Positions 2,159 through 64,000 of a DNA stretch of 64,000 nt are shown here, in pieces. The notes beneath the pieces were generated by a model. The model did no database searches, was not told the DNA's origin, and saw nothing but the letters and a program-made list of their open reading frames with translations. This DNA is from Takakia lepidozioides (Eukaryota > Plantae > Bryophyta). Position 1 is the stretch's first letter, and the number at the start of each line of letters is the position of its first letter. A program made the position numbers and the translations under genes. The stretch lies in the NCBI GenBank assembly GCA_030704615.1, contig CM060733.1:2728001-2792000 (forward strand), read 5' to 3'.

Positions 2159-2160
2159 CT

Positions 2161-8402: not shown

Positions 8403-9017
8403 TTCTGCCCCCAGTCAATGATGGGACAACCGAGGCAAAAAGGTGAATGCCTGCTACATTTCAGAGAGTAGCAGACGCAATTGAGCATAGGAACTAGTGT
8501 GATAAGCTGAGTTGGGTGTTTCCTAGAACAAATGTAGGTTGTCATTGTCAGCTACTAGCAGCAAGGCAAGGATGAATGCATGATTTGTGCAGGGGCATGG
8601 ATAGCTGAAGAAGCAGGGATAGAGTGTGGTCCAGATTCATCCTAGAGGGCCAAATTTCAAGCACAAGATTTACCTATGATTCCCTGTGGATCAATAACTA
8701 CAAGAAACCTCCATGGGTAGATGGTCTATTCCGTGGAACTCACTGAAGTCTTGCATTATGAGGATCAGAACTGCTTGACTTGCACGAGGCCTTGACCCTT
8801 AGGCAATCCCCAGAGCAGTAATAGCTTTTGGGCTGCTTTTTTACTTTGTGTTTTTTATTTTGTCCCATAAGCTCTTTGAGCTTTCCGCAGATGTAATAAA
8901 GTACCATTTTGTTTCATTTCATTCATTTTCATTTCATTTTGTTTCATGGCATGTCTTTCATCGTTTGTGCATTTCTAATGCATGATTAGTTCTCTTGTAT
9001 GGCATTACTAGTCGACT

Positions 9018-9579
9018 CACTACAAACACCAAAACTCCAAAGCATGAATCACTATGAATGATTGTTCAAGTAATTTCGAGCACTTCATGTAAAGTAGTAA
9101 AGCAGTGGTTGCGCCAACTTCCGCAGTCGCAATTTCCACTGGGCATGTAGCACTGCAAGTTATGTGGTCTACTACCACGAGGCGCCCCGGGCCCGTGGCC
9201 ACGTGGCAGCAGTGGTGCTCGTCGTGGCGCCGCCACGTCGGCATCCACATCGTCGTCCACGTCCGCGTCCATGTGTCGCCACGCTTCAGTGAGTCGGTCC
9301 ACTCATCCGGAGGGAAAAGTCAAAGTCAGCCCAAAAGGTCAGACACACGGGTGGCCCTCCTGGTTACGCCACGTGGTTCTTCAGCATTAATCGCATTAAT
9401 CGCTGAGCAGTTGTTCGCGCGTCTGCGTCCTTTACCACTCCAATCATTGGATGTCCAACCCAACTACCACGTCTGTTGTAACTAGTCTGTTGTAACTTCC
9501 AGTCGATCCCAGTTTTTTGACTTTTACGACTCAAAATGAGTTGTTACCCCAGTGGTAAATGACACGAATGCTTCTAGTG
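9018..9579. mobile_element. Non-autonomous CACTA-like element
   Basis: Begins CACTACAAACA and ends TGCTTCTAGTG; CCACGT and AGTGGT internal motifs; flanks ACT and AAG do not form a TSD. Confidence 0.6.
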
Positions 9580-13677: not shown

Positions 13678-13834
13678 CAATCTTTGCAAGTGTGTTGGAC
13701 ATACCTTGTCAGAGGTACGTGTCGAGTATCAGGTCAATCGAAATTGATTGAAAGGGTGAACCCATTGTTCGATGTTCAAATGATTTTTTATTGCTTTCAA
13801 ACATTGCGAGTGTGTTGGATATACCTTGTTGGAC

Positions 13835-29000: not shown

Positions 29001-29978
29001 TACTCAACTCCAACAGTATTGGCAGGCAGTGTAGTATTTTCACTTTGTGATGCCATCTCAGGTTACGGTTGACCTCCTGACGACGTCTTTGGAGCGCAAA
29101 ATTTCGTTCTTTCAAGCCCAGTACGAGTTATATTTGCCAGCAGAAGGTATCCCACATTTGATCCAAGCTTTATGTCGGATCACTGATTATATGCCGGCTG
29201 CTGATAGTTGTGTTCCATTCGATGCCTTGTGGTATATCTACATGAGGTTCTAGGCCTCATAAAATCTCTCATATTCAATTCTAATTGAGCTACCAGCCCG
29301 GGCCCTCACAACCTTTATCAGACTAAAAAATTCTGGTACAACACATCCTGGTATGCCTGGGTCTCTAACTTCTCTGATCGCCACCTACTACCCAGTGCGA
29401 TCTCTCGAGCTCCATACGGGGCCAAAAGAATTAGAAAAGTGAAAAGGAGCACAAACTGGATAAAGGGTACAAAGTAAGAAGCCGAAAATGCTTCTTGAAA
29501 ACGACTACCACGATTTTTTAGCTTGATATAAGACTTCATCTTCCTTTCCTTTGTCTAGCTCCCACACACAGCTGCCACTAGACAAGTGATTTGTAGACGT
29601 GAGTCTGCGTTCATTTCCTTTTTATTGAGACAGTTTCTGCAAGGGAGAAACAGCACAAACGCAGCTTTTACACCCACAACACTTCTGCTGCAGATCGCTG
29701 CTAATCAAACTTGACTTGCACGATTGTTGAAGGCAATTGACACCCACAAAAGTGCAGTCACATATACATATGCTCACCGTGAATCCCACATCTTCTTCAA
29801 GGATGCCGCCGCAAGATCATGTTCATCACGGCCGCAGTTGGAAGCAACCAGAGAGGGATCAGCAATATAGGGCTTATCACCTTTTTGGTGATAGCAGTAG
29901 CGATGTGCTTGCCTCCATCGCCATAGCAATGGAAGCTACAGACAGAGTCTGGGGATGAAGACCGAGTGAAAAAAAAGG

Positions 29979-30060
29979 CGTGCTCGGCAGGATTCGAACC
30001 TGCGCGGGCAGAGCCCACATGATTTCTAGTCATGCCCGATAACCACTCCGGCACGAGCAC
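29979..30060 (-). tRNA. tRNA-Ser (anticodon AGA)
   Basis: 82 nt; acceptor stem GTGCTCG/CGAGCAC; anticodon arm CATGA-CTAGAAA-TCATG; long variable arm; GGTTCGAATCC; upstream TATA and CAA; T8 terminator at 29969-29976. Confidence 0.97.
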
Positions 30061-35600: not shown

Positions 35601-37768
35601 GCACTCTCCCTTTCCTCTCTGCTTCTGTTTGCTGTTCAAAGGTAGGCTTCCTGCCCTGAGTTTAAATTTCGGTCTAGTGCCGAGAGTGGACAAACTGTGA
35701 TGTACGGAAATTGAAAGAGCTGCAGTTTTGTTGTAAGATTGGCATCTCTGCCTGACGTGAAGTTCTGTAAGTTCTTGTCTGATGCATATATTGTGGTCCT
35801 GCTTGGACATAATTTCCACCCGTCTGTATTTTGTGGCAGTAGGGAAGCAACGAGAGTCCGTTGAACTAAAAAACGTTGGACACCCAGGAGGCCTTGAAAC
35901 TTTTGGTTTTGTGCCCGATAGATACTGTGAGGGGCCGGGCTGTCAACCCTTTGGGTGGACAGGCTTGCGACCTTTCCTCCAAGTATTCCTTGGAGGAAAG
36001 ACGATTGCAGCAGTTCCAAATTTTTTCCCACCAGGAAACCTGGACTCCAGTTGCCCAGAACTAAGCCATAAGTGCCTGCAGGGGTGACAACGAGCTGAAG
36101 AGCCTGCCCTTTGTCAATCTGTCCATAGCAGTCGATGCAAACTGAAATTTGGGTGAGTGGATAACTAGACCCTGGTATGGGTATGATTTCATGACCTCAA
36201 CAAACACCTGTGTTGCTTGCACTGGGCAAGAGAGGATGGAGACTGAAGAACTTCTTCCAATGTCCACTCTACCACAGTATACGTGAGGCTCTCCACCTAA
36301 GAGAATCTCTTGAGGTTGAGGCCCAGTTTTCTGGTTCTGGTGGCTGTTATTGGATGCCCCACCTCTTATTGATGATGTTTTCTATTTTTCTTTGTCCCAA
36401 AGCTCATTGATCTTCCCATGGACATTCTAAAGTTTCTTTCTTTCTGTCTGTCTATCTGTCTGTCTGTCTCTCTTTATAAATAAGGCTCCGGGAGGGTGTG
36501 TTTCCTGTGGGGTCGATGGCCATAAAGCAACCAACATTTGCAGGACCAGCATGAGTATATTCTCTCTTTGTGGATAGGAAATCCATGTAAAATAGATCTC
36601 CAGAAGCCTGAATCATAAAAAACTGAACTACATAGAAATACTTGAACTGGACAGCTCTACCTATTGGGAAGGACCCTACCTTTGCCACATATCCCAGCGG
36701 GGTTGGTAAGTCTCATGGATTGGAGTGATGTTCCCGAAGTCATGACCATAGTCACTGGTGCCTGTTCCATTGGTGATGTAAAGGTTGGCATAGGACAGGT
36801 CTCCCAGAAAAAGCACCAGGTCTGGCTCGTTGTGACGCAGATGGTCGAAAGTGGATGTGGAGTTATAAGTAAGACCCAAATCTCCGATGAATCCCATTCG
36901 ATTGGGGTAGCTCGATGGGCTTGGGGCCTTCAGAGTTCTAAAGGTGTACTCACTGCTCATAGCTGAGTAAGAAGGGTCCCCGCATTGGTAATAGTACTGT
37001 GTATCTGGTGCTAGCCCTGGCCAAAAAAATTCAATCACTGTACAGTTGGTATCACAGAATTGAGCAAGTCTGTCTACTAAGTCATAAAACAACTTGGGAC
37101 CTGAAAATGGAGGGCTCGATGGTAAATTGAGAGAGTCACCTGTGAGGCGAACGTGGTGGATGATGCCTGACGTGTAGTTGAGAAGACCTTGGTATGGGTA
37201 CGTTTGGCTGTACACCTCCGACGTCCCATTCGCATTTTGAGTATATTTTCCTGAGGTGGTCCCGTAGTATACAACACTGCTCACACTATTGGGGTCCAGC
37301 GGAGTAACCTTCGGCCCCATTTGTGCATCTCCTGCACGACATTTTGAGTTCACCCCTTTAGTCTCTCTAGATTCTATCTCATTCTCTCTCTGCATTGCCA
37401 AGTTGAAGCAGAGGATTATGTAGACAAGGACAGAAGACCTGAAGGCCAGGAAATATGAACCAATCTAGCTGAGGGTCGTGAAGACTGTACACAGCACAAA
37501 ATGCGACAGGAACGGTGAACCCACCTGTGACCCAGGACACCCACATGGCATCGGGGGTAGAAAGAGAAAGAAAAAGTTGCTCGGGGGTTATGCCAGCAAC
37601 GTGCTTCACCACTCGGGAGTTATCCATGGGCAGATCCTCACTGAAAGCGCGAATCCTCGGGTCAAATGGAACCGTGACTGGTGAGAACGGCCCGTCCAGT
37701 GTGGTCGGGATACTGGCCGAGCAAGTCATCATGCACATGGAAACAACAACAGCCAATTGAATCCTCAT
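32672..37768 (-). CDS. Purple acid phosphatase, PAP15/PAP23 (phytase-type) group; exons 37768-37525, 37331-37140, 37016-36680, 34425-34208, 33786-33596, 33215-32931, 32797-32672 (about 530 aa)
   Basis: Signal peptide; IPTTLDGPF; metal-ligand motifs GDLG, GDLSY, GNHE, WHPPWY, GHVH; all GT-AG junctions keep frame; the exact start codon and last exon are less certain. Confidence 0.93.
34560..36470. mobile_element. LINE (RTE-like) remnants in PAP intron 3, with an internal inversion
   Basis: Plus strand: GVKQGCPLSP, YADD, GLQVNLSKTKIM. Minus strand 35214-36205: EVMKSYPY and CPLCGQSEDSIHFLLHC. Plus strand near 36250: FFQCPLY. (CTGT)n tail at about 36443-36470. Confidence 0.8.
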
Positions 37769-38353
37769 CTCCTTCAGCTTGGGCCCCTGAACCATTGACG
37801 GTCTGGGCTTTAGGAATTGCCTAGCATGCATCTCTCTCCAGTGTACCTCTTCCTGGGAGCCGATGGATTCCTTCGGTGGGGTGTCACATTGTACTCTTGT
37901 GCGCCAGAATCTCTCCTCTGCCAAACTCCAGGGAGCCTCCTTCAAAGACACATTTGTTTCATGTAGCATCGTGACCCAGTCAGTACACACACTCTCTTTA
38001 CTCTCTATGTAGCGTCGATCCCTCACAACACATAAACGTGTCAGAGGGCGACACGAACAAGTCAGCAGCTCTCAAAACACCGACAATGCATAGCAGCATC
38101 TTCTGCCGGATCATTCCTTGGCAGATCTCCTTTTCCTCGTCACCAACTGTCACTATGGCACTTGCGCTTCTCGCCAATTTCCAAACTACAAACTAGCCTA
38201 GAAAGCTGCCTCCTTTTATGACTCACTACGCTTGCTGCCGCTAAGTCTTTCTCGTGTACAATTGTAGTGCGCTTCCTCGAGACTCGAGAAGACCCAGCAA
38301 TATGATGGCTCCTGAAGGAAGCGTAAATTATGGTGTCTCTTGTACTAGAGAAC

Positions 38354-44290: not shown

Positions 44291-47107
44291 TGTGCCCTCC
44301 CTTTTTCGTTTGTTCTTTGGGAGAGAGGTAGTTCAGAGAGTGGGGTTTAGGGTGGAGGAGAAACGAAGGTGGGTTTCCAAAGGGAGTTGGCGAGAGGCCA
44401 AATATGGTCAGTGAGATATCTATTTAACTTGATCTAGTTTATGCTCCTGCAGAAAGATCACTGAGTCGGTAGAAAGGAAGGGAGCGAGCCAGTTTCTAAT
44501 TTTGACCCTTTTTAGGGACGCCGAGTCCGTCCCAAGGCCTCGGAGATTCCAAGAATGGAGATTTAAGTGACATGAGGAGAGTAAGGTAGGCTAGGACTGA
44601 AAGTCGAATTTGATGGCCTTGTATGACGGTAAGAGAATTGAATTGTGTTTTGGCGAGGTCTCAAGGAAATGACCCATACAAATGGGTCAGGGGCTTCTGG
44701 CTCTTTTTGCAGACTTGAATAAAGATACCTCTAGCGGTCAGAGGCTGAGGGCTGGCAGGCACAGCCTGAAATTGGTCAGATGGAACCTTCAAAATTGAGA
44801 TAGTTTGGATCCGAATCCCTTCATGAAAGAAATCAGCGGAAAATAGAGACAAGAGTTGAGTATCTATTCGTGAGTGAGCCGTCCAAAGGAAGCGTTCCTA
44901 AGGGGATGTAATCTGCCAGGTTGAAGGTTGGTAACATGTGCCTTAGCTGCTTTCCCCAGCTCTGTTTTTTTTTTTTTCCACACAACATCCAACATCTGCT
45001 AGAATCTTTAACAAACACTTGGAAGAAATAGCAGGGAGAGGGAGAGAGGAGAACCTGGTGGGGGGGATGCGGGGGATCTGGTAGGCGAACTGTTGGAGAG
45101 AGATCCTGCATGGGAAGATATTGACTTGCGTCCACAATAGTGGGGGGTGATGCAGGGCTGGTGACCTCGTTAACCGGAGGGGAGATGTGCATGATATTGA
45201 CTGCATCAACCAAGTTGTCTTTGTCAGTGCTGATATCATCTGGAGAGGAATTGTCGTTGGTGTCTGTGGAATCCGATGCAGCAGCTGAGTTTGCATAATG
45301 AACCCTGACTCCATTGATGTAGTCTTTGGTCTTTTGTAGTTCCAACTTGTGGTTTTCTTCTTCTATTTCCTGATCCAGGAAGGCTGACAACAGCTGGAAA
45401 ACGTTCACCAGAGTATCTTGGTTCCTTATCTGGAGCGGGTGGCTTCCCTTGGGGGATTTCAACCATTGTTTGTAAGTCCAGATTGTTCCCAGAGGAGGCG
45501 GTTCAGAGTTGTAAATGTCTGCCTCTTCCATCAGTGCCAGCACCTGAGTTGATGGTCTGCAACTCAAACCAAGGTGGTCTTCCAAGTAGGCTCCCCACAA
45601 AATTCTAGTTGAGGGAGACAAGAAGTAATGAGGTAGAGGCGCCTCAAAAAATTCCTGAATCTTGTACTTGAATAGGATTTCCAGGCCAGTGTTGGGAGGA
45701 TTCGTTCTCAGAAAGTGTTTGACATCAGAGGTTTTAACCCAAAGGGATTTGACACACTCCAAGTCGTCAGATGTGATGAGTATTGCGGGGGGCTTGCCTT
45801 TTCTGAATATCAGCGGTATAACACAGGAAGCCTGGGGAGCTGCAATTGTCTCAAGGGCAGAACAGCCAATGAGGGTTTGGGAATGAGCATGTGTTGAAAC
45901 ACAGATTGGCGAAGGGGGTGTTGCATGATATACCTGTTGTTACCTGTGGGCCTCCTTTGGGTGTGGGACTTGTGAGTTGGATAGATGGAGTGGTGTTCAA
46001 CAACTTTGTCTTTGCCTTTTGATCATTGAGTGTTTCCTTTGTTGTTGTAGATGGGCTCTGATTTCCTCTTGCATTGGATCTCTGTTGATGTCCATGTCAA
46101 GTTATTTTGCCACTAGTGTGAAACTAGCTAGGAAATAGCTAGCTTTTACATATTGACATTTGGGATTGGCCCAAGTGTCAATCCAGGGGTCAAGGCAGAT
46201 TTAGGCCCTGGAGTGGTTATCTTCACGGCAAGCGCGGGAGGCTCATCTTTCTCGAGTTGAGCCTCACCGCGCCTAGCTATGGCGCCGTAGTGTGGATTCC
46301 CCATGGCGTGGGGTGCACTTGGCTTGACTTGTATTTGAGTGATGAGGTTATATATGCATGAGTTTATGCTTCAGCTTTGTAAGCTCGCATGAGCTTGTGC
46401 TTGTATTCTTCTTCTTTATCACTCGAGAAAGATGAGCTCGTATTTGTGAGTGTCAGATACGAGTTAGTTGTAGCACTTGTGGTTTTTGCTTGAGAATGAG
46501 AGAAACCAGGTTGTTATGCAAGGAGCACCATGGAGCTCTTGGTTGTCAGAAGTAGAGGCGATGTGGGTTACGAGGTGGTAGACCTTGGCATTCGATCTTC
46601 AGCTTCAGAGATGACAGCACCATGCTGCAGGTAATTCCAGAGCACCTTGATGGTTTCAGATTGTGTACATGCATGAGCAAGCACAATTGGGAAGAGGACC
46701 AGTCAAGAGCAGGTTAGAGTGGCTTTGGTGGCAAAGGTGAGAACTGGACTTGGGAATGCGAGCTTTCATTGTATGAAGGATTGCAAGACCAAACAAAAGG
46801 GCTGATTTGGCTTGGGGCAAATCAGTGCACTTTGTGGAGTATGTTGAGATTGGGTTTCAATCTCGAGCTTCAGCATTGAGAGGGCTCTTGTCATGACAAG
46901 AGCAGGGCTAGAACAGGAGCTAAGAGGTGCGGCAAGGCCATGGAATGTGCACCTAGGGTTTCAGAGCTTGGAAGAAGAGCTCTTGCACCACAAGAGAAGT
47001 GTCTTGTGGCTGGAAATGTAAGCCTTAGGGTTTCAAGAGCTTGGCAAAGGCTGTGGAGTGCTTAGTCTTTGTCTTAGAGAGCATCAGGGAGCCAAGGCGC
47101 CAAGATA

Positions 47108-47580: not shown

Positions 47581-48042
47581 TAGATAGAGCATGGCTCTTG
47601 AAGTGGCAGGTGTAGGGGGCTGGAATAGGCTCTAAGACAGATGCTATGGCCAAGGAAAACGCTTGAATGATTGCTCACAAGGGCTGGAAACCAGCAAGGC
47701 TTGGTTGTTTGCCATTGAGTTTAGTGGCGTGTTTGGGGAGTCTAAGTGAGAAAGAAGGCTTGGTTTGTGGCAACCATCTTCCTCATGGCTTAGGGCTACT
47801 ATTGGTGGTGTGTGGGAGCCGAAAGAGCAATCAAGCATCGACATCCACACAACCTCTTCCACAAGGTGCAGGGACTTCCTCTGGTCCAGTCATGCAGAAG
47901 TTACCATCGCAACCTAATGTGAATTGGATACACGCCGAACTGTCAAACATGCCAAAAGAGGAGGAACATGAGGAGAACACATGTAGCTTGGCGTGGCTAA
48001 ACCCTTGGAGAAATGGCTAAACTGCCATGAGTGGCCATGGAT

Positions 48043-48330
48043 GGGGCTGTGACGGGCTGTGACCTGTGGCCTTGGGGGCTGTGACAGGCTGTGACATGTG
48101 GCCTTTGGGGCTGTGACGGGCTGTGATAGGCTGTGGGTCTGTGACCCTGTGACCTGTGTAGGGCTGTGACAGGCTGTGACCTGTGGCTTTTGGGGCTGTG
48201 ACGGGCTGTGGCCTGTGTGGGGCTGTGACGGCTGTGACCAGTGATCTGTGTAGGCTTGTGCTGGTCTGTGGTGGCCCGTGTTGACCTGTGGACGGCCTGT
48301 GCTGACTCGTGGACGACCTGTGCTGACTTG
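48043..48330. repeat. GGCTGTGAC minisatellite
   Basis: 10-mer-based array with the same core as 51731-52017 and 56503-56693. Confidence 0.85.
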
Positions 48331-49793: not shown

Positions 49794-51104
49794 GTGCCAC
49801 TAATTATTGGGGAAAGTGCCGGTACGAGCACTAGCGATACTAGCGGGTATACGAGACGAGGTGTGCGGTTTAGGCCACCTTCACCTCCTGTGTCTTCTAC
49901 GGAAGGTTCTGATTCGGATTGTGAATCAGAAGGACTCACACCGGCGGTGCAAGTTGTTTACTTGCCATTGTTGTGGGACACAATGGAGGAGATGTATGGA
50001 GCCACCAAGGGGCCACGAAGGTACTCTAGGGCGGTGGGCACCATTGAGTTGGATGATTTTATCCAAGAGTTTGATAGTTGGTGTGACTTGCAACAAATGC
50101 GCAATCCACAGCTGTTTACGCCTTTTATGGCATGGAAGGGGTTGTTTCAGCACCTTGAGATGATTACCATGAGTTTAGGCGGGGGCACAATATTGAGATC
50201 AAGGAGTGGAGGATGTACTGGTCACCCGACTATGTCTCCATCACTAGAGGCACTAGAGGTACAAGGGCAGCAGCCACAGCGACAGCTACACCAGCAGCCC
50301 TACCAGTAGCTACAACAGCAGCTTCCACAAGCAATAGTGAGACTAGTGGTACATCAACTACAACGTCCACCCAAGCTACTGCTGCACCAGCACCAGTGGC
50401 GGTGCCTGCCTTCAACCCTGTTGTGGAGTTCTTCGAAGAGTTGAGAAGGAACTACCAAGGAGTGAGGATAGAGAAGTTGAGGAGCTTGCAAGAGTTCCAA
50501 CGGAAGCCTACTGAGAGCTTGAGGGAGGCTTTCACTCGCATGAGGCGCTTGATTAATGTAACCCAAGGGGTTACGGAGGCTCAGGCAGTCCAATTCTGGT
50601 ATGGGATATTGGACAAAGAGCTAAGGAGAAGGGTGCAGGATGCAATTCTCCTACAAGCGGCCCAACCCACCTTAGCAAATGTGTTTTTGCTGGCAAAGCG
50701 GATAGAGCTCAACATGGTGGAGGAACGAGTGGTCATGGTGGGATTTGCTAAGGAGGCACCACGGGGTAGTGGTGCTCCTAGCCAGCCACTACCTCAACGT
50801 GCTCAAGGCAACAAGGGAGCTCAGGTGAAGCCTAGGGAAGGACAGAGAGGACCTCAGATGCAGGGGTCTCTCCCTTCATTTGCAAGCCAACAACGGACGG
50901 ATGTGGTGTGCTGGACATGTGGAGGACCCCATGTCAAGAAGGATTGCCCAGAAGGAGACAATGGTTTGGCACCGGCATAGCCTGCACAAGTGCAGTGTGG
51001 GCATTGTGGCAAGTACGGGCATGGAGAGGCCCAGTGCTATGGTTTGCATCCTGAGTTGCGCCCAGGCCAGTTCCAAGGGAACAATGGTGGCCGGGGGCGA
51101 GGTG
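49794..51104 (+). pseudogene. Gag with two zinc knuckles
   Basis: FQRKPTESLREAFTRMRRL (major-homology-like); CWTCGGPHVKKDC; CGHCGKYGHGEAQC; one frameshift near 50160 and a stop at 50978. Confidence 0.88.
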
Positions 51105-52111
51105 TGTCGAGCGGCTTTTACTCACCCATCCCTTCGCTATCCGAGGTGGAAACTCCAAGATAGAAGAGTTGGATATCTCTAAGCACTCAGCCCGCTCAGA
51201 ACAATCAGTCATGACCTGCAGCTAGTGAATCATGGTTGTGCTTCCTATTTGTATTCTTTCCTGCCTTCATGTTATCAATTTATCTTACCGTGTATACTGA
51301 AGCATCAGATTGCTTCAGTATCTACTAAGTTTCAGTTAATCATGCATTCATTCCACAGCTACTCTCGTGTCTCTCTACACAGTATGTTTGCATCGATTTA
51401 GTATCGGATTAAGATTAATCATGTATCATGCTTATGCCATGGTGTCTCTATTCTATCCTACTGTATAATTCTACAGCTTGCATGAACTAAGCCTCATTCA
51501 AGTCATCATCTCCTCTACACTGTTTTCCGCTCTCTGTTATGTCTCCTCTTCTCCTGAACAAGTCGTCCTCCTCAAGCAGTGATCCCCTTCCCGTTGCCGC
51601 TCTCCTAATCTACCCGCAAGCTGTTCTAACCACCTAACTAACTAACCGTCACCCCTGAAGTAACACGTTCCCTCTGCAGATGTCGTTCCCACATAGTCGT
51701 TCCCTGTCAATGATAACTGTTCCCCATGTACTGTGACAGGCTGTGTCAAGTTGTGTCGGGCTGTGACTGACTGTGCGAAGTTGTGTCGGGCTGTGTGAAG
51801 CTGTGTCGGGCTGTGTAAAGCTGTGTTGGGCTGTGACTGGCTGTGTGAAGCTGTGTCGGGCTGTGTAAAGCTATGTCGGGCTGTGTGAAGCTGTGCGAAG
51901 CTGTGTCAGGCTGCGACTGGCTGTGACGGGCTGTATCGGGCTGTGACTGGCTGTGCGAAGCTATGTCGGGCTGTGTGAAGCTGTGTCAGGCTGTGTGGAG
52001 CTGTGTCGGGCTGTGTAACCCCCTTAAAGCCTGCTCTTGCCATCCCTAAGACTTCTGTTGGTCTCAGTCTGCGCAAAAATCAAGGGTACCCCATAGAACC
52101 CGTAAAAGCGT

Positions 52112-55100
52112 CTAAGTCCCAAGCAGCCCTCTAACATTACCCCTCCCCCTCTCAAAAAATCGTGTCCTCACGGTATACTGTTTGGGATTAGCAAACCTTT
52201 GTAAGCGAGCACCCTTCTGACAGTGAGAGTCTCGTGAAGGACTCCATGTGCGAGCCCGAGTCCTGTCACTGACTGCTGGAAATGATTGAGCACTACCTGG
52301 AAATGTCCGACCCTTCTTTGGCTGATAACGAGGTAACCTCTCAGGCATAGGAGATCCCCGTCGTTTCTTCACTGCCATCTGAAGTACATAGTCCTCTGCC
52401 ATGTCAAAAGAGTCATATGAAGAAACAGTAGTATCAAAATCCTCGTCCCCCCTTAGGTGTTTTAATGGCCGAACTTTAAGTGGAATCCTGTGTGGCATAC
52501 AATGTGGTCCCACCATGTCTGGAAGTTTAAACTGTACAACTTGTTGTAAGCGCTTGCAAGCAAAATTAATGAACGCCCTGAACTCCTTATCCGTATAGGT
52601 GAGAGGTGTGCCAATGACTTTGGAACAGTGTAAGTATTTCCAGGCTTCATGTCCCTTAAAGAAAATATCCTCAGGGCCAAATTTCTGTGTTGTCAAATTG
52701 TTCCAAGCTGAATTAAACCATGAACGAAGTTGGGAATCCTTTTGCATCATAACTTTTGCATCATATAGGTACATATGAGGTGGCATTGAAGGTAAGACCC
52801 AATGATCCCCACTGGAATAACTCAGAAATCATGATTGCATCTTCTGCTGCTCAATGTGATAGCGTGCCAGAAAATAAGCAGCATGGTATAATCCACAGCC
52901 CATGACAATACTGGATACCTCCTTGGTCTTGGTATAGATGTACCCATGTACAACCTAGAAGGCAATTAATTCTTTCAGCATGGTACCTGCTTCAGACCAG
53001 TACCTTGCAAAGGCTTGCAAAGGGATGATCCTCAATGGGTCGATTGTTCGGAAGAACCTTAGTCCGAGTTGCCACCGGCAACCAAATGCGCATCATCTGG
53101 TAGTAATGTGCCAACGACTGCGGAGGACTAAATTCCTTCCAAGCCAAATCCAGCACAATGGGAATTTGGTTGAAGGGCATAATCATAGCCCGACTGTACT
53201 CCCGTGCAGCAGAAGTCCTAAGTGGGTTAAAAGCAGCATCCCCCCATACCTCAGGCTGTGGTTTGGTTGTAGTAGCAACAGGGTCAGCTACCTGCACAGG
53301 CACCTGCTGTGATATTGGTACCACTGGCCCTTCTACCACTGGCATCTCCTGTACCCCCTGCGAAGAAGACTGAAAAATTAGAGTCCTGGCATGTGAATAA
53401 GTAGCCATCAGCTGCTCCTCAGGAACAAAGACTCTCTTGTCAATATTTGAACTCAAGTCATCCACTTGAGTTTGCAGGCCTTCCACGTCCTCCTGTAGCT
53501 CCACTATCATATTATAGACATTGTCTATAGTAATTGGGGCAATGTTCTGCACCTGCAATCTGAGCTCATTCATCTCGCCCTGGGTGAGCTTCCGTGGTGC
53601 TTTGCCTTCTACCGGTCCTTGTGCTAACCAGACCTACATAAGGTGGTTATCCACCAAGTCCTGTGTGGCACCCCTGAGAGTCTGCTCCTCCGTGAGTCTG
53701 TACACATCTAACTGCTGTTGTAAAGCCTCCATGCGCTTTGCATGAGGTTCAACCAGGCCTACATAGGCAGCAGCCAGATTATTGGCTTCCTTCCAAGCCT
53801 TGTTAGCCACAGAGAGTTCATTTCTATTGACCATGACTGTTTGTTGCAACTCCAGGATGTACCTCTCCTGGTCAGCCTCAACCTATCTGTATTGTTTGAA
53901 AGTATTCTCATTGCGACAGATTGTATCCTTCATATCAACAATGAGTTTCGCTTGCTCTATTATCTCAGCTTCTGCCCTTATACATCTCTCCCCTTGTCTA
54001 TTAACTTCTAATGCAGTTTGCTCTAGAGTAGTTGTGAGTGTAGCACATTGTATGGTCATCCTCTGATGTACTGCCTCCAACTCTGTATGTAGTACGTTCA
54101 CTTCTTGCAACTTGCCCTCATGCTTCACCTGCAATTGGTATAACTGTTGCTTATGTGCTTCATGCAATTGGTCCTGCTCGAGACATGCTTCAGTCAAATG
54201 TCCCTTGACCAACTGCAAGGCAACATTTGTGTCCTCCAACTCTTGCTGTAACTTGAGATTGACCTCCTCATCTACCTTGTTAGCACACTCAGTGGCAATT
54301 TGAGCCTCAAACTCCTTCCTGAGTTCCTCCCTCAAAGCTGCCAGTTGGGTAGATGGAACATGGGATTTCACATAAGTGCCCAACAAATTAAGTGTCCTGC
54401 TTATGGAACTCATAAGCATGGCCTGCTGGGGGTCATCATGGTGAACTTGCTGCCGTTCTCCCTGATCCTCCACAGTGTGATGCCTCACCAACCATTCAGG
54501 CCATTGCCCCACCAGATCCTCTTCCTGAACCACCTCATCCTCCACAGGTGCTGCAGTGTCATTATATTCTACCCCCGGTACCTCCGTCACATGTGTGGGT
54601 ATTACATGCACAGCAGGGTTTTCCCTGGACAAACGCTGCACCTCTGGAACCACTGATTCCCTTACCAAACCAGAGTTTTCATAGAGAAGGTCACCCTTCT
54701 CAATTTCGGCCACGACCTGCTCTATAGTGGGAATATCCAACCTTTCTCCGTCCAGAGCAATTGGGGGTGGTGTCACAGCATGTTCTAACTGCGGAACCTC
54801 TAAGACAATTGAGTCAACTGGCTGTGGTGGCTGTGGTATCAAATTGACTTTCTCTTCCCTTTCCGAAGGCCGTGCTTCCAATAATAACAGCCCTTTGTGC
54901 TGCTGTGCCCCATCCTGCACAAAAGCTTGGGAAACATCATCTTGCAGTTTCCGTGAAGCCAGTGGGTCCGCCACTACAGTCATACCCCGTTTTTGTCTCT
55001 TAGATTGGTGTTGCCCTGCCAGTCCACCCTCACTATGTGAAGAGCCCTGCTCTTCAATTGCAGTGGTTACTGCCTCAAACAGTCCCATCTCCTTACGTTC

Positions 55101-55693
55101 CCGAGTATCAAGTATGCAAGAGTCAAGAATGATTTGGGCAATGACTGGACCAGACACAATGATCGGAGACTTAGCAGCAGTGCCTTGTAACCTCTTCATC
55201 TCGTCGACCAGATCATTGTACATTAACTCCGCCCAAGCTACATCCTCTCCCCTCAAAGCTTTCAGGATCTCCTCTGTGAATGACCTGCTCAAATATTGTT
55301 GGTTCTGTTTCATGACAAACAGAACGTTCAATATTTGGCCAACTTCTCTGAGCCCTGGGTACTCGGCTTTGGTACAAGCATAACCTTGAGTCTTAAAGAA
55401 ACTCCCTTCTTGGAACAAATTCCCTATCTGGAATCTTGCCCTGTGCTCATCCACATCCACATGACCTGATGGCAAATCAAACAATTGCTGCAAGTAGTAA
55501 TTTCTATATCTACTCCCCTCACCGTCCGAGTCTCAAAGTTTTGAAGAAATTGAATCATATACTGCCAATGATGCAAGAACCAGTCCTTGCATAGCAAGCC
55601 CCTCCAATCGCAACTCCCTCAGCAGCTGCACTGCCTGCGGTGTAGCAATTGTTTGCTTCTGCAGAATCGTGGTGCTCTTCACCCTGATATCCT
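52112..55693 (-). pseudogene. Extra ORF downstream of pol, coiled-coil rich, frameshifted; function unknown
   Basis: Consecutive ORF pieces of 536, 71, 193 and 224 aa in the pol orientation, running up to the PPT; Q/E/L heptad-rich segment at about 53500-54350. Confidence 0.7.
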
Positions 55694-56471
55694 CCATTCC
55701 CCTCACTCTCTTCATTCTAGACAAACAAAAAGGCCTTGTTTGAAATAGCTGAAGGAAAGCTTGCAGGGCACAGAGCATAAAAGGTATGGTTGGCACAGAA
55801 TGGAACAGGTAAGTGCGTGTAAGCCTGTGGGGCTTGCAAGTATCGAGTGAGAGAAAATGTACTCTCAATTCGTCCGTCCTTGCGCCACTGCGTGAGAAGT
55901 AAAACGAGTGTGTAATCCGTTACATCCGCCATAGCTACAAAGCTAGTGCTTTGATTGCCCCTCCCATCGAGACACTGGCTATTCGGAGCCACCCCGACTC
56001 TTCTGCTCATAACACTTCTAATTTCTTGTTCTTGTTTCTTGGAGGGAACCACCTGCATGAAATTCTCACTCCTGATTGGCTGTTGCCTGCTTAGGTAACT
56101 TCTTAATTCCACCCCCCTCCGTGGACATTCCCACCTGGAATGTCCAGTAGGACAACACATGTGGCATAGGTCCATCTTTTCTATACTCGGAAAGGGTTCC
56201 GTTACCCTTGCTCTGAATGCATTATTGGGCCCACAAATAGTCTTAGGTGATGTACCGGATAGGTATTTTGACGGCCCGATTTGTCCTCTTGCATGATGAG
56301 ACCCACTCTTGTAATTTATGCAGTGCAGTGTGCTGCGCCTTAGTGGCCACGTGTCCATTTCTAGACATGCCCCCGACTTCCCCTCTCCGTGTGGCATATT
56401 CTCCGAGTTTGACTTCCAAACTTCTTCTTCACTTGACGGCCACTTTTCTGACGTTAACCCGCGTCCACCTA

Positions 56472-59245
56472 TCACTGACCCAATGGACTGTATAACTCGC
56501 ATGGGCTGTGACAGGCTGTGTCTAACTGTGGTGAACTGTGATAGGTTGTGTGACACTGTGATGGGCTGTGATAAGCTGTGTCATGCTGTGTTGGGCTGTG
56601 ATAGGCTTTGTCACGTTGTGATGGGCTGTGATAGGCTGTGTCACGCTGTGATGGGCTGTGATAGGGTGTGTGGCACTGTGGTGGGCTGTGATATCTATGT
56701 GAACACCTGTACTTCCCGCCCTGGTCATACATGCTCGGCTCAGCGATAAGTGCTCCATACTCTGTTGGTATCACTGGCGCAGCCCGTAACTGTTTTTGCG
56801 TTTCAACATGCAAATCGTGCTGCAATGATTTGTCATGGATACCACTGTACCCCTTCAACTTATTGGCATTGACTCTTCCCAGCATTTCTTTGTTAATGGT
56901 TTGTAACATGACGGTGTTATTATCATACATCTTCTGTATGACATAAGGTCCTTTCCATGGTGATTTAAGCTTAGAAGCTTTAATCTTCCCCTTCTTCTGC
57001 AACCACAGTACCAAATCTCCCGTCTTAAAAGTCTTTAATTTACCTTCATCAAACTGATCCTTCCTCTTCATCTGAATTCTGATCATGTTATCAGCTGCAT
57101 CAGCACGTACTTCTTCCACATGGTATAATTCATGTTTCCTGACCTTAATTGAATCTTCCAATTCCATTCTCCTTCCCCATTCAGTTCTCATGGTAGGTAA
57201 CAAGAATTCCACTGGAAGTAAAGCTTTCATACCATAAACTAATTGGAATGGTGTATACTTAGTGGTGACTTTATATGAAGTCTTGTATGACCACAAAGCT
57301 GTCAGCAGCTTTGTATCCCAATCTGTTCTGTTTGCATTGACTATCTTAGCCAAGATAGTACATAGTATTTTGTTGGTAGCCTCTGCCTGCCCATTACCCT
57401 GTGGGTAATATGTTGTACTCTTCCTATGCACAATCATGAACTCTTTAGTCAATAGTTCAATGGTCTCATTAATGAAGTGATTTCCCTGGTCACTGATAAA
57501 TTCCAGGGGACAGCCAAATCGTGTAAGGATGTTCTCATACAGGAACCTTGCTGTGGACTTGGTTGTGTTGTCCCTCAGAGATTTAGCTTTCACCCACTTT
57601 GTAGTATAATCAGTGGCTGTGATTATATACTTGTTCTGTGTATTCTTGGCTGGTGGGTTAATTGGTCCAACAAAGTCTAGTCCCCATTTCTGAAATGGTT
57701 CAGTAGGCATCGTAGGATGCAAAGTCATCTTTCCAGATCTCTGCAATGGTCCTAGCCTCTGACACCCATCACAACTCTGACAATACTTGTGTACATCCTT
57801 GAACAAAGTAGACCACCAGTAACCTACAAGTAGTATCTTTCTACTGGTAGTCTCTTCTCCAAAATGACCTCCAGCCACTCCTTTATGAACTTCCTCCAAA
57901 ACTTTATTTATTTCATGGTGGTACAAGCATCGTTTAAGTACTCCATCAGGTCCTAGCTTATACATTCTGCCCCCTACCATAGTATAAGGTAAAGCCTTGA
58001 TAGCGATTCTCTTCCTCTGCTCCTTTCCATAACTAGGTGGGCACTAACCATGAGTAAGGTAGTATCTGATTGGCCACTTCCAATCTAACCAGTCATCTGC
58101 ACTTCCCTGCACCTCCACCGCAAATAGACTCGTATCAGGTAATTGGTCGTCTACTCCTGTGGCGGGCTCTCCTGTTGATAGGCGTGACAAGTGATGTGCC
58201 ACAAGATGCAAACGGCCAGGCTTGTAAACAACTTTGAACTCAAACTCGTGCAAGATTATTAACCACCTTGCTATCCTTCCACTTATCAAGGGTTTGTTCA
58301 CCAGATATATCAGAGCCTGGTGATCGACATAAAACATAAACTTCCTTCCCAATAGGTAATGCTTGAATTTCTTGACTGCATAAATCATTGCCAGTGCTTC
58401 TCTTTCAATTGTGCTATAGTTCCTTTCAGCACTGTTCATCAACCTGCTAGCATAGTACACAGGTGAATCTATATGGCCTGTAACATTTTGGGCTAACACT
58501 GCTCCCAACGCTTCTCCTGAGGCATCACAGTGAACATGAAATACTACATGCCAGTGAGGGTTAATTAGCACAGGTGTAGTTGTTATTGACAATGTAAGTT
58601 CCTCAAAAGCCTTTTCACATTCAGCTGTCCATGCAACCACTGCATCTTTCTTCGGAAGCTTGCTCAATGGTGCTGCTATCTGTGCATACTGTCTGACAAA
58701 TCTTCTGTAATAACTGGTTTGTCCAAGGAATCTCCTTAGACTCTTAACATTTACTGGTGGTGGAGAGGCTTTAATGGCCTCTATCTTTCTGGGATCCACA
58801 AGAAGTCCCCTCTTACACACAATGTGTCCCAAAAGCACCCCCGTGTTCATATAGAAAGTACACTTCTCTGGATTCAGGCCCAGACCTCTCATTCTACATC
58901 TGGCCAAACATAACTCCAATTAATGCAAGTGCTCATTCTTAGAGCTGTACACACTGAAATCATCCAAGAACTCATGCATGAAATCATCCAGATACTCATG
59001 AAAAGATTCACTTATCACTCTCTGAAAGGTTGCTGGTGCATTACAAAGTCCAAAAGGCATGACTTTGTATACATAAGCACCCTAGTCTGTGATGAAAGTT
59101 GTCTTTCCCTGGTTTTCTTCTGCCACTTGCACTTGATTATAACCACTGAAGCCATCCATGAATGAGTACATCTCATGGCCTGCCACAGTGTCCAATACCG
59201 CTTCTGTGAATGACAAAGGGAAAAGATCTTTCTTCGTACAAGCAT
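56472..59245 (-). pseudogene. pol remnant (RT, RNase H, integrase) of the nested element
   Basis: DGFSGYNQ, MPFGLCNAPATFQR, FLDDF, HCDAS, GHFG...CDGCQR, WGLDFVGP, SDQG, GQAE, WKGPY. Confidence 0.93.
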
Positions 59246-60239
59246 TCAACTAACAAGGTGGAGCAGCCCAGAGAGGACGAGGTGCAGACCAAGGGCAAGC
59301 TCAACATGGCCAAGGACGCGGAGGTCAGGGTGGTGACCAAGGCATGGCCAACCGGCTTCAGCAGCTAGAGCAGAGGCTCGCTGCCATGGCCACAGCTTAG
59401 GTGGTACCGGCTCCAAGGCCGGATGGTCCACCTCCTGCTCCTGAGGGAGGAGACTTAGGAGGCATGGGATTCATGTGCGGGGCAGCACACTAGTGAGGGG
59501 TGCAACTACCACTACCACTACCACTATGGGGGGGGCTCCACTACCACTGGTGAGGGGTGCCACTACCACTACCACTGTGGGTGGGGCACCACTACCACTA
59601 CCACTATGAGCGGGGCAGCACTACCACTAGTGCAAGTGGACTCAGCTGCGGCATTGACTCGAAGAGCGGCACGAGTTCCTGAGCCACGGGGTGCGGAGGT
59701 GGAGTTGGATCCACAGCGTGGGGAGGCAAGCCGTCAAGCCAAGCTTTCTAAGTCATTCACATTAGCGGAGATAGTGTCGACACCATCTATGGCACCTAGT
59801 TCTCGCCCGATTGTTACCGAGGCGGAGGTTACTATGCCATTGGGGAGAGCTACACGGGTAGCACCACTACCTAGTGTTGCCAAGATTACGGCAGCTAATG
59901 TGCTGCTGGGGGCGGCCACAGCTGTGTGCCCGGCTCCATTGTTCTCGGCTACCATGATTGCGACGCCGGGGGTAAGACCAGCTAAGGTGTTCAGGCTGGC
60001 AGCCACACTCTGTGAGAGTAGGGAGGTTACTTCATCTTCTCCAGAGATAGTGGGAGGTGTAGTGCCGGAGGGATCCTCGGATGTGAGGGTCAAGACTGCC
60101 ACGGTGGTGCCATGGCAAGCTGCAGCTGCCAGGTTGATGGAGCTGTCAGCTAGGCCAGCCATTGAGCGCGCCATGGTGACACCTGGAGTTGTCATATTAG
60201 ACAACCAGGATGACATTTTCTGTTTGAGTGGACCGGCAG

Positions 60240-60560
60240 GCAAGAGGTACCGGCCACTGCGGGTCTTGTTGGACTCGGGAGCTTAGCCATTGATGTTGGG
60301 CAGACCTGCTATTGCAGGCTTGGGCCTCATGGAGGTGGATATGGAGTCGTGCCCTTTCCAGATACAGACATCTCTGGGAGGATCAGAGCAGGCTCGGGGC
60401 ATGACACGGCGTGAGTTGGGTATCCGACTACAGCCGGATCATCCTATAGATGGCTCAGTGATGAGAGCCAAGGCCATTGTGACAGACGCGGTCTCGTACG
60501 ATGTCCTTGTTGGTGAGGCAGTGTTGTACCCCATGGGCTTCACCCTGGATTTTTGGGAGA
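60240..60560 (+). pseudogene. Retroviral-type aspartic protease domain
   Basis: LRVLLDSGA*PLML...YDVLVG. Confidence 0.85.
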
Positions 60561-60970
60561 AGTCAGCTTCCTATAGGCCTGCATGGCAGTCAGGGGAGGG
60601 CCGACGTGTGCAGCTCCCTGTGACGTTCATAGGAGGAGTTGCGGTTAGTAAGCGAAGCAAGATGCCAACACTGGCCGCATTCACAGCTGCAGTGACTTGG
60701 CCTAGAGAAACTCATTCAGAGGATGTGTCACCTCCGGGAGAGCAAGATGACATGTATGGTATGGCGGAGTTGCCTGCCATGGTTGCTCACACTCCATTGT
60801 GGGGTTCGAGCAAGGATTTGCAGCGGGTTGTTGATTGTCGTGTGCAACAAGCCTGGGTAGAGGCTTTTGTACCGTCAGGAGAGGAGGAGAGTGCGGGGAT
60901 TGCACCAGGACCACCTCAGTTATCACCATTGGACACCACACCGATCGTGTGGCAGTGTCCGGATAAATGC

Positions 60971-61890
60971 ATTTGCCTTCTGGATTTGTTTGGCAGGATT
61001 AGCACCGGGTTGGCTGTTGTTCTACAGGCAAGTGTACGAGTACAACGTTACCTGTATGTGGAGAGGGATGAGACTGCACGACGCGTCTCCCTACGCCATG
61101 TTGCTCAGTTGGTGCAGCAGTACCCTGAGTTGTTGTCGGTGTCTGCAGTTCGTGGATATCAGCAGGCCTTGCCAGCAGACATTTTGTTGCTGGGGGCGCA
61201 GGATTTGGAGCGGGTTGGCTCCATTGATTTGGTAGTGGCAGGTTGGCCCTGCTAAGGGCATTCATCAGCCGAGCATGGCAATGGATTGTGAGACTCGAGG
61301 TCGGGTCTGTTTTGGGAGATGGTGCGGGTTTTGCGCCACTTACAGCTTCAGCAGGCTGTATCTCTAGCATACATCTTGGAGAATGTGGCACTGATGGGCG
61401 ATTCTTGGGCCAGGGTGATGGCCAGTGTGCATCAAGTCGGGTCGAGGCTTAGGTCAGCAGTGTTGCTGGATGCAGCTGCAGTGGGGTCACGGGCTCATCG
61501 TCCACGGTTATGGTGGACTAACTTGATGCCACCCGCACTCCTCAAGCGTGCATTACAGCGGCCAACACACCTCACAGTGGATAACATTTTGGACACAGGC
61601 AGGCAGTCTCAGTGTGTGAGACACGATGATAGTTCGCCTTTGGCAGTGGTTAACAAGATGGGTCAACCACGAGCAGCACTACATACACTGCTCAGCTTCC
61701 TAGGATCGCATGCTTTCTAGGATAGTGGACCTGGCCTCCTGTGGGATGCTCAGTTGCAGCAGTTAGTGGAGCCTAATGCTGATGAGCGAGAGAGGGCTAT
61801 GGGTTTTTCCACTGGGACCACGGCGGTGCCTTCTCTTTCTGAGGCATCACGTCGTCAGGTGTTGGGGCAAGCGATGGATCTCAATTGCTT
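60971..61890 (+). pseudogene. DNMT3-like DNA (cytosine-5) methyltransferase domain inside pol
   Basis: I LDLFGRISTG; II YVERD; III ADI; IV DLVVAGWPC; V SGLFWE; VI YILENV; VIII SRAHRPRLWWTN; IX ERERAMGF; X RRQVLGQAMD; single frame with 3 in-frame stops. Confidence 0.92.
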
Positions 61891-62839
61891 GATCTGGATT
61901 ATCAGCTTGGCTATGGCTGAGCAACGTAGAGTGAAGAGTGCACTTCTGTTAACGGTCTCTCTGCCTACCGAGACGGTACAGGCAGTGAGTGGGGGCGAGC
62001 CGGTGAGGACCACGGGATATAGACATCCATGGTACACGTGGGAGGTGCTCGAGGTTCATAGGGAGTTGGCAGCCAAGGCGGCTGTGATGGATGTGGTTGG
62101 GGATTCTTCTCGGGTTGAGGAGGTCCTCAACGATGAGATGATGGGGCAGGATGAGGCCTTGTCATTGACTGAGCAGGCAGGGAGTACTGCTCATGAGGTT
62201 GCGGCATAGCAACCACGGGACGCGTCTCCTACCTCTAAGTCTGCTGGACTTAAGGTTGCAGTTACGGAGGACAATTGGGAGCCTGACATTGGACCCATTG
62301 TCACTAGAGGAGAGAGACGACGTATACGGCAGTTCCTGAGGGCTTACAGGAATTGCTTTGCCTCTCGTGCTACGGTGGAGGAGCAGGAGAGACATGTTCA
62401 GGTTGTGCATCGACCGGGTTTGGCCAATAGGGATGCGGATGGATTGAGTCGCAATCCATGCACGAGCTTGCAGGATGACATTGGAGCTCGGTGGCATGGT
62501 GAGGCGGACGAGGAGATGGTACGGGGATGACATGCATCTGCCTTTTTGTGTATCTTGGCATCGGGAGGTCAGGTTGGACCTACAACAGGGATGACTGTAG
62601 ACGGAGTGTCTGAGGACCTTGAGGCTAGTGATGAGCCAGGTGGTGCCAGAGATATACATGAGGATTCGGTTGTGTTGGACTACCTCCGCACTGGAGACAC
62701 GACAGCTAGTGTGACTACCAAAGAGAGGAATCGGATCCTACAACGAGCCAAGAGGTTCAAGTGGGAGGGGATGCATCTGCTTCGAGTGTGGGAGGATGGT
62801 CGAGTGAGGATCGTACCTCACCCAACACGGGGTGCACGG

Positions 62840-63400
62840 TTAGTGCGGCATGCCCATGAGGAGTTGGGGCATTTTGGAGTGCGACGCACTCATAGTTTAC
62901 TGCAGGGGCAATATTGGTGGCGTGGTATGCACACAGAGGTGCAACAGTTTGTGGCTAGGTACATGGTGTGTGACAGCCGGATTTGCCTACATCTCTTCGT
63001 AGGGAGGCTGCAGTAGTCCTCAACCTTGATGATCTGGATATGTGGACACAAGCATGTGCCCAGCGGGCAGAGTTGTTCAAGAGAGTCATGCCTATGGCTT
63101 TTGAGAATCTTGCTATTGCCCAACACCGAGACACATTGAGGTATGCCACTATACGCGGAGGGGGATATCGGCCAGGTGTTCGGCGTTTCCACCCTGGGGA
63201 CTATGTGTATATGCAGCAAACAACGCCTACAACCTTGGATGTCACAGCAGGACGTGTGATTCTAAGGGTCAGGGAGGTGTTGCCTTCAGGAGTGTTGATT
63301 CTAGAGGGTCGAGATGGCATGATATGGAAGGACCATGTGCGTAATTGTGCGCCATGTCACCTTCCACATGTGGATGGGAGGATAGATCCCAACCTTGCAG
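62840..63400 (+). pseudogene. Integrase remnant: zinc-binding N-terminus and C-terminal part, DDE core absent
   Basis: HEELGHFG...YWWRGMHTEVQQFVARYMVCD joined with a frameshift to PDLPTSLRR...AQHRDTLRY...FHPGDYVY. Confidence 0.85.
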
Positions 63401-63420
63401 TGCTACCTACAGGATTGCGT

Positions 63421-63556
63421 TGCATGTTATGTGAGCATGCTCGTGGTGCCGCCACTATGTTGGTGTGTGATCGATGCTCAAGAGGTTGGCACATGGGATG
63501 CTTGACACCACCTCTTGAGAGGGTTCCTGATGGAGATTGGTTATGTCTACACTGCT
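63421..63556 (+). pseudogene. PHD finger at the integrase C-terminus
   Basis: CMLC...MLVCDRCSRGWHMGCLTPPLERVPDGDWLCLHC, a complete C4HC3 pattern. Confidence 0.93.
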
Positions 63557-63824
63557 TGGGATAGTGGCAGTGGATATGACTAGTGGCAGCTCAAAAGACA
63601 TGGGAGGCCAAGCTCATAGGAGTCAATACACGAGATCCCAGGCTCAAGTTCATAGGTTGCAAGACGGCGATTAACGATGGGGCAACTCTTGTACCCGGCC
63701 TCTTGATCTATTGAGTTTGAATGTAGTAGGGACAGTGGTGGAGGACTTAGTGAGGCTATGGCCACTATCACATCTTGTGGCTACCTGGACTTAGTGGGAC
63801 CTAAGCACCAGCTAGGGGGGCGAT

Positions 63825-64000
63825 TGTGATGGGCTAGTGGCAGCCTAGTGATGGACTAGTGGCTGCACTAGTGGTGGCTAATGGCAGCCTAGTGGTGGAC
63901 TAGTGGCTGCACTAGTGGTGACTAGCGGTTGTCTAGTGGCAGCCTAGTGGTGCACTAGTGGTGGACTAGTGATAGACTAGTGTTTGGTGTGCACATATGT
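63825..64000 (+). repeat. Start of the 3' LTR, with a CTAGTGG tandem array
   Basis: TG after a purine tract; repeats of about 11 nt, CTAGTGG(CAGC/TGGA/CTGCA); runs off the window edge. Confidence 0.65.

Follow-up and report, generated by a model that had tools for sequence, protein, structure and literature searches.

Among described retroelements that carry a DNA methyltransferase, KnitGypsy-Dnmt3 of Klebsormidium nitens has a DNMT3 domain in the Pol open reading frame (ORF) of a Gypsy element, with Ka/Ks <0.2 and with repeats that are DIRS-like according to the legend of Fig. 4c (de Mendoza et al. 2018, PMC5890265). The same paper reports that SymbioDIRS-Dnmt3 methylates CG. In the present study, we analyzed a 64,000-nt stretch of the moss Takakia lepidozioides (assembly GCA_030704615.1, contig CM060733.1, positions 2,728,001 to 2,792,000 of the forward strand; hereafter the window), which contains a decayed Ty3/Gypsy element with a DNMT3-like cytosine methyltransferase between its protease and reverse transcriptase (RT). 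All positions given are those of the window, on the plus strand unless marked (-).

Later work refers to the DNMT3 Gypsy elements as streptophyte elements (PMC12344493; bioRxiv 10.64898/2026.05.21.726589), and the authors of the EpiLTRs and DAM-LTRs consider their own DNMT to be distinct from the streptophyte Gypsy-DNMT3 (bioRxiv 10.64898/2026.05.21.726589). A Chlamydomonas Gypsy element with a PHD finger and subparts of the long terminal repeat (LTR) has been described (10.1101/2022.06.16.496473). The available main text of a plant LTR classification mentions neither a PHD finger nor a methyltransferase (PMC6317226), and the available parts of PMC6453930, PMC10952607 and PMC11982613 do not mention an element-borne DNMT3. 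In the literature covered, from which subscription journals were mostly absent, we found neither land-plant copies nor the readthrough described, nor split ends combined with target duplications.

A first-pass annotation of the window had proposed a methyltransferase of the DNMT3 family, rather than a permuted DRM, in the pol frame of an LTR retrotransposon, and the family assignment held. When the window frame was translated with X at the stops, the domain at 60971–61951 matched PF00145 at E 2.4e-8 (34.2 bits; curated cut-off 22). As had been read from the letters, the methyltransferase follows a DSGA protease (60272), and its motifs stand in linear, non-permuted order over 60980–61880: I at 60980, IV (PC) at 61241, VI (ENV) at 61379, VIII at 61493, IX at 61781, and X at 61865. 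A phmmer search with an unbroken relative ranked DNMT3A (3e-11) and DNMT3B (1e-8) ahead of HaeIII (1e-4) and DRM (5e-4 or worse). The AlphaFold model of that relative had a pLDDT of 96.8, and all 30 of the Foldseek matches listed for it were DNMT3 entries (best E 3e-19, TM 0.72, approximately 21% identity). The host DNMT3 of land plants is a multi-exon gene with a C-terminal DUF3444 (PMC6453930); no DUF3444 match was found in Pfam scans of the window or the relatives, and the domain is intronless. Judged by sequence and fold, the window domain is almost certainly a DNMT3-like, non-permuted C5 cytosine methyltransferase.

The catalytic residues of this domain are well kept. The catalytic Cys was present in 75 of 76 proteins of the same architecture and in 106 of 107 proteins of the other architecture described below, the motif VI Glu in 76 of the 76, and across the 183 proteins the Cys, the Glu, and both motif VIII Arg residues were nearly invariant. 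The ratio of nonsynonymous to synonymous substitution rates (dN/dS) of the window methyltransferase was 0.10–0.13 against 10 loci (with dS near saturation) and undefined against 3 more, and it was 0.14 in the unsaturated pair of relatives L019 and L020. By these ratios, which bear out a check suggested by the first-pass annotation, the methyltransferase is under purifying selection across the family.

To define the family, we searched for the DNMT domain and obtained at least 67 long relatives among the best 7992 scored candidates. Identity to the window DNMT was 69% in Calypogeia fissa and 57–69% over the full domain in Marchantia polymorpha, 47–53% in Sphagnum, and 36–37% in Closterium; the 50% library gave 202 clusters at E <=1e-30, and 58 metagenome loci were found. 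Sufficiently long loci showed the architecture gag-protease-DNMT-RT-RNase H-integrase-PHD, with an integrase of the rve (DDE) type in the relatives, and the linker of one locus group matched a named Sphagnum fallax protein. In IMG/VR only distant bacterial-type methyltransferases were found (30 loci, E 4e-11 or worse), and matches in the ESM Atlas were limited to generic DNA_methylase clusters, Streptophyta being the commonest phylum of the first. No vascular-plant relative was present among the species-named matches listed, where most matches lacked a species name and each search covered the best 7992 candidates. Likewise, no protein named for Klebsormidium was among the matches listed; relatives from Closterium fell inside the clade of the same architecture. 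On these matches, the DNMT-bearing element is a family trait in mosses and liverworts, and the domain stands in the same place in Closterium.

A FastTree tree was built from 192 DNMT domains of at least 270 amino acids (aa) with assignable architecture, all of them of the element type. It separated 82 protease-DNMT-RT sequences from 110 sequences with the DNMT between RNase H and integrase (support 0.98), and a clade of 52 members (0.98) united the window with sequences from Marchantia, from Calypogeia, and of the Sphagnum type. The RT-RNase H tree of 89 rows contained the same two groups (0.87 and 0.82), together separate from three references taken from the window. Neither tree contained host DNMT3 or REXdb references. 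Since both trees separate the sister group, they suggest that the domain was captured once, long ago, and later changed its position. In the sister group (107 tree proteins), the order is RT-RNase H-DNMT-integrase-PHD; examples are P0042, P0406 (Monoraphidium neglectum MNEG_11595), L038, L042, and L043, and the only species-named member is a chlorophyte. An adenine-methyltransferase tail suspected on P0042 was dropped, as no Pfam match was obtained at E up to 10.

We then compared the stop codon at 62207 (62207–62215 with its UAG-CAR-YYA context) among 35 loci, that is, the window and 34 relatives in each of which a DNMT is followed by the pre-RT helix; loci devoid of the helix were excluded. 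A stop followed by CAR-YY was found in the RT frame, 12–19 codons before the helix, in 28 of the 35 (TAG in 22 and TAA in 6), as against only 4 of 447 stops arising by decay. The strict form UAG-CAR-YYA was present in the window, L001, L019, L020, L032, L033, and L039, and two loci outside the set (L026 and L049) also had the motif. In L019, 1336 codons are followed by TAG CAG TTA and then by 1047 codons with no further stop. Many relatives end approximately 40–180 residues past the DNMT, and five Marchantia gene models of 1278–1281 aa terminate at the position of the conserved stop. Among contigs from the same species (2996 on a 361-nt stretch), no variant at >=5% was listed at 62205–62216; position 62203 differed in 65. 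The comparison of these loci indicates that the stop at 62207 is a conserved feature of the family and not a product of decay.

UAG-CAR-YYA is the readthrough motif of the tobacco mosaic virus (TMV) type and is functional on UAA as well (PMC3542737). The RT-integrase-PHD part is therefore very probably made by readthrough. The frequency of stop plus CAR-YY at this site, compared with that among decay stops, makes Gag-protease-DNMT the likely main product, and with readthrough of this kind the DNMT would equal Gag in abundance. Because the DNMT of the land-plant clade ends the Gag-protease ORF before the conserved stop, the proposed location in a pol frame held only in part: in this land-plant Ty3/Gypsy element the domain does lie between the protease and the RT, and a single continuous pol ORF is not supported. 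In several relatives outside the 52-member clade no stop interrupts the ORF, which makes it likely that the stop was gained later; the root of the trees is uncertain. As a side observation, the Marchantia models P0442, P0443, P0449, and P0450 (1280–1281 aa, V chromosome or chromosome 5), which belong to a Gag-protease-DNMT cluster, are annotated as hypothetical proteins.

The ends of the element were examined in the window and its relatives. No paired LTR for the DNMT element was found within the window, and two identical direct LTRs were not the arrangement of the relatives, which had split ends of the form A...B or A...B-A-B instead. The left end of the Sphagnum type consists of a repeat A of approximately 340 nt, and on the right a polypurine tract precedes a different repeat B of approximately 113 nt. 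The layout was A...B-nn-A-B in L035 and A...B in L009 and L037, and the right end was B-nn-A-B in L014 and L053. All three loci in which both outer ends could be followed (L009, L035, and L037) had TG...CA ends, a polypurine tract, and a 4-bp target duplication. The divergent L019 shares the CA-nn-TG junction. The similarity between repeat A of the window and that of the Sphagnum type did not exceed that of shuffled sequences (score 133.5; shuffle maximum 139.5).

The primer-binding site of the window (46421–46437) is not of the transfer RNA (tRNA) type and is complementary to the element's own 5′ repeat. The putative self-primer at 46241–46257 is a perfect 17-nt complement of it, and a complement of >=15 nt occurred in 0 of 200 shuffles. 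In L019 the complement is 16 nt, approximately 27 nt past a TATA-like box; Sphagnum-type complements were short, with 10 nt in 4 of 8 loci, 2 of these at the post-TATA position. Self-priming is thus predicted from the pairing of the primer site with the element's own 5′ repeat. Reverse transcription primed in this way would probably give a linear cDNA whose two ends each carry a B-nn-A repeat. That the relatives combine split ends with target duplications of 4 bp suggests integration from a circle: the cDNA would circularise and the integrase would cut the internal CA-nn-TG junction (B|A), a one-repeat circle yielding an A...B insertion and a two-repeat circle an A...B-A-B insertion. We lean toward this route, with less assurance than for the self-primed cDNA.

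Taken together, we consider it rather probable that the window holds a dead copy of a high-copy moss Ty3/Gypsy element whose family has a Gag-protease-DNMT ORF, likely followed by readthrough, and a packaged DNMT that likely methylates new cDNA. Gag, protease, and DNMT would be translated as one frame up to the UAG-CAR-YY stop, and readthrough would add RT-RNase H-integrase-PHD. Packaged in amounts on a par with capsid, with many enzyme copies per particle, the methyltransferase would methylate the element's new cDNA in CG or mixed context. The element would thus already be methylated on arrival in heterochromatin, a destination selected by its PHD finger, which likely reads unmethylated H3K4. 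For this last part, with the element's own cDNA as the substrate and heterochromatin as the destination, we see the chances as evenly balanced. Release from the polyprotein, packaging, and self-methylation had been proposed by the first-pass annotation, and we infer them as well. Only tentatively, and with the balance tilted against it, can the whole be put together as an ancient green-plant Gypsy lineage, missing from the plant LTR classification cited above, that would carry capsid-level DNMT3 in each particle, methylate its cDNA before insertion, integrate circles through CA-nn-TG with a DDE integrase, and act in bryophytes as a second source of de novo methylation, one encoded by a transposon.

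Alternatively, the targets of the enzyme may be nuclear, namely integrated copies or the chromatin of the host, instead of the cDNA in the particle; as a writer it would then limit the element itself or shape chromatin. An enzyme in large excess at the C-terminus of the main product would suit such a role, the moss host DNMT3b performs de novo CG and CHH methylation (PMC6453930), and self-limiting roles were discussed by de Mendoza et al. (PMC5890265). However, there is no chromatin-reading domain on the DNMT, the PHD finger being located on the integrase past the stop, and the fusion to Gag suggests packaging; action in the nucleus is accordingly rated as unlikely. Less probable still is that the domain has been kept as a nucleic acid-binding or RNA-methylating module, or as a mark of the B|A junction for circular integration, and not as a general DNA writer. 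Such a role would fit the Klebsormidium domain, which gave no DNA methylation in yeast in a test that its authors call inconclusive (PMC5890265), the DNMT3A homodimer-interface residues, which by eye are not kept in the alignment, and the co-occurrence of methyltransferase and split ends both here and in Klebsormidium. It is at odds with the near invariance of the catalytic Cys, Glu, and motif VIII Arg residues in the 183 proteins, and with the CG methylation by the related SymbioDIRS-Dnmt3 mentioned above.

As for how RT and integrase are made, some Marchantia models join DNMT to RT (P0006, a partial model), as would be expected if splicing or re-initiation were used and CAR-YY reflected a constraint on Gln codons. 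Yet the RT follows in the same frame directly past a single stop in families that are approximately 47% identical and have unalignable linkers, and the second codon after the stop varies (CCA, CCC, TTA, TCA, and CTA) but always begins with pyrimidine-pyrimidine, which makes splicing or re-initiation very improbable. The heavy decay of the window copy might suggest that a dead element picked up part of a host DNMT3 on a single occasion. This reading is refuted, since liverworts, mosses, and Closterium all carry the domain in the corresponding position; purifying selection and the lack of introns and of a DUF3444 match also speak against it. Neither of the two outcomes that the first-pass annotation had named as refuting its proposal, absence of a PF00145 match and a one-off insertion, was observed.

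Several observations weigh against readthrough at a family-wide stop and a packaged enzyme that methylates cDNA. Seven of the 35 loci do not have the motif: two have TAC at the stop, two have a second stop replacing CAR, one has a frameshift at the site, and two are divergent and frameshifted. The 28 loci with the motif are not independent, as they represent approximately four families and are mostly of the Sphagnum type, in which the stop context is CAA-CCC and not the strict CAR-YYA. The algal-type relatives P0041, P0078, P0380–P0385, and L054/L055 have an uninterrupted single ORF, which means that capsid-level amounts are not required by all members; hundreds of enzymes per particle would also exceed the apparent need of one cDNA. 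In four close pairs of decayed Sphagnum-type copies, dN/dS was 0.44–0.63. As regards activity, the negative yeast result for the Klebsormidium domain belongs here too. CpG depletion does not mark the element, its observed/expected ratio being 0.55 versus 0.24 and 0.86–0.88 in neighbours without a DNMT, and CpG and CHG content was uninformative. With regard to the circle, none of the 8 left ends had the mirror form A-B-A...B, also possible from a two-repeat circle, and the terminal repeats of the window are unpaired since the window ends before the right end of the element.

The window copy could be followed from its 5′ repeat to the edge of the window. Part A of the 5′ terminal repeat covers 46095–46421 (start at 46095 or 46117), with a CA end directly before the primer site as in the relatives. 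The 5′ part of gag, with capsid and zinc knuckles, lies at 49983–51099 with one frameshift near 50159; relatives map gag to 49983–51067, identity to Marchantia Mp4g09160 was 83% and 50%, and the Retrotrans_gag match (E 0.0011) was below the cut-off. An unrelated nested Ty3/Gypsy element at 51105–59255 (-), recognized by its RNase H and integrase matches and by a 5-bp duplication (51100–51104 and 59256–59260), splits gag. The decayed 3′ part of gag and a linker, with a tandem-repeat expansion, follow at 59256–60205 (translation, and tblastn of relatives from 59681). The aspartic protease is at 60206–60631 (stop at 60284; relatives match Asp_protease_2), and the methyltransferase has stops at 61253, 61289, and 61718 and a change in motif I. 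Beyond the conserved stop, which ends Gag-protease-DNMT, the pre-RT helix, a short RT remnant (approximately 62364–62396), and the RNase H tail are left at 62261–62560, the rest of RT and RNase H being deleted. The zinc-binding domain of the integrase (62648–62974; Integrase_H2C2, E 8e-12) is followed by a deletion of the catalytic core and a frameshift. The C-terminal region of the integrase and the PHD finger (PF00628, E 1.2e-9) occupy 62974–63564, and the best solved matches of the finger were CHD4, PHF12, BAZ2A, KAT6A, and PHF21A. A polypurine tract at 63810–63823, a motif common to related loci that extend there, precedes part B of the 3′ repeat (63825–64000), where a 2-nt spacer separates CA at 63995 from TGT at the edge of the window. 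A second A probably begins with this TGT (...CA TA TGT), to judge from the CA-nn-TG junction found in L012, L014, L019, L035, and L053.

The five ORF pieces that the first-pass annotation had placed in one frame (59606, 60290, 61319, 61754, and 62546) were found there on translation. Its view that only point stops separate them was not borne out. Six stops lie within the frame (60284, 61253, 61289, 61718, 62207, and 62528), one of which is the family feature at 62207; compared with the uninterrupted L019, approximately 420 residues of RT/RNase H and approximately 177 residues of the integrase core are deleted, and the last 196 codons are in another frame. The interval 59261..63564 given for the element was likewise too short, as the element starts at approximately 46.1 kb and gag is split by the nested insertion. 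With the stops in protease and DNMT, the motif I change, the deletions in RT/RNase H and integrase core, and the split gag, the window copy is dead. Contigs from the same species diverge from the window at 62363 (n=44) and rejoin it at 62397 (n=26), so other copies retain what this copy has lost. Such contigs also join 51099 to 59256, skipping 8156 nt across the nested element of 8151 nt; 12 in sequencing run X1 bridge the insertion, and others do in runs X5 and X6. On 48.5–64 kb, 131,503 contigs of run X1 were found, an abundance that indicates many copies of the element, summed depth not being equal to copy number. In run X8, which may be of RNA, 129 contigs matched, mostly <95% alike, and in run X9 none did on a short stretch; these have no bearing on expression.

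Other features of the window were as follows. The nested Gypsy element keeps both outer ends and its 5-bp duplication, has approximately 6 nt of its 5′ LTR left, and has lost its own 5′ half; past the integrase it carries three extra ORFs (53883–55532, 52992–53633, and 52112–52828) with no Pfam match. Short degenerate tandem repeats that are alike lie at 48040–48250, 51725–52020, and 56500–56690, outside the coding regions, and occur in the DNMT element as well as in the nested one. A tandem chromovirus covers 1432–13678, with LTRs at 1432–2158, 7676–8402, and 12951–13678 (first pair 98.8% identical) and a chromodomain on its integrase. Exons of a host purple acid phosphatase at 36676–38071 (-) are 77–78% identical to Ceratodon and Sphagnum and, over the same stretch, 60–67% identical to liverworts and seed plants, values that by themselves make a moss the most likely host. 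A tRNA-Ser(AGA) gene is located at 29977–30060 (-).

The range of DNMT3-bearing retrotransposons, previously one alga, now takes in mosses and also liverworts. Among the latter is the model Marchantia, whose full-length Gag-protease-DNMT frames have been entered as hypothetical genes. If the proposal is true, a transposon-encoded source of de novo methylation in bryophytes has so far been annotated as such genes. The question raised in 2018 about the use of the enzyme to the element can now be put to the test in a plant for which genetics and methylation mutants are available. A conserved readthrough-type stop would mean that selection has set the amount of enzyme at the level of capsid and not of RT, which constrains the mechanism, and split ends with target duplications would reflect an integration route missed by ordinary LTR finders, so that the family is probably under-annotated.

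In comparison with known systems, the stop differs from that of gammaretroviral gag-pol in lying past protease and an accessory enzyme and not past gag. SIRE1 has a similar readthrough signal between pol and env. Like TMV type I readthrough and gammaretroviral gag-pol, the present family has a single in-frame UAG-CAR-YYA with the polymerase downstream (PMC3542737, PMC5009743). With Tcn1 / Tf1-Sushi moss chromoviruses, for which self-priming has been predicted (PMC6317226), it shares the predicted self-priming primer site. It differs from Tcn1 chromoviruses in its split ends and in having a PHD finger and no Chromo match in Pfam scans of the window and relatives, and in the RT-RNase H tree the RT of the family is placed apart from the chromovirus found in the window. 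Split direct repeats are typical of PAT/Ngaro-type DIRS elements. The A...B-A-B layout resembles that type, and the retroelement-borne DNMT3 resembles SymbioDIRS-Dnmt3; unlike the DIRS order, the family has a DDE integrase (rve), TG...CA ends, and 4-bp target duplications, and no tyrosine recombinase. EpiLTRs and DAM-LTRs are likewise LTR elements bearing DNA methyltransferases, but their DNMT is sister to DNMT4 and stands alongside an adenine methyltransferase and a chromodomain (bioRxiv 10.64898/2026.05.21.726589). KnitGypsy-Dnmt3 shares the Ty3/Gypsy type, an intronless, non-permuted DNMT3-type domain, purifying selection, DIRS-like repeats, and a streptophyte host. The elements described here differ from it in their land-plant host and high copy number; a PHD finger, readthrough, and self-priming are not mentioned for KnitGypsy-Dnmt3 in the available parts of PMC5890265, and its DNMT is located in the Pol ORF, whereas here the DNMT ends the Gag-protease ORF before a readthrough-type stop.

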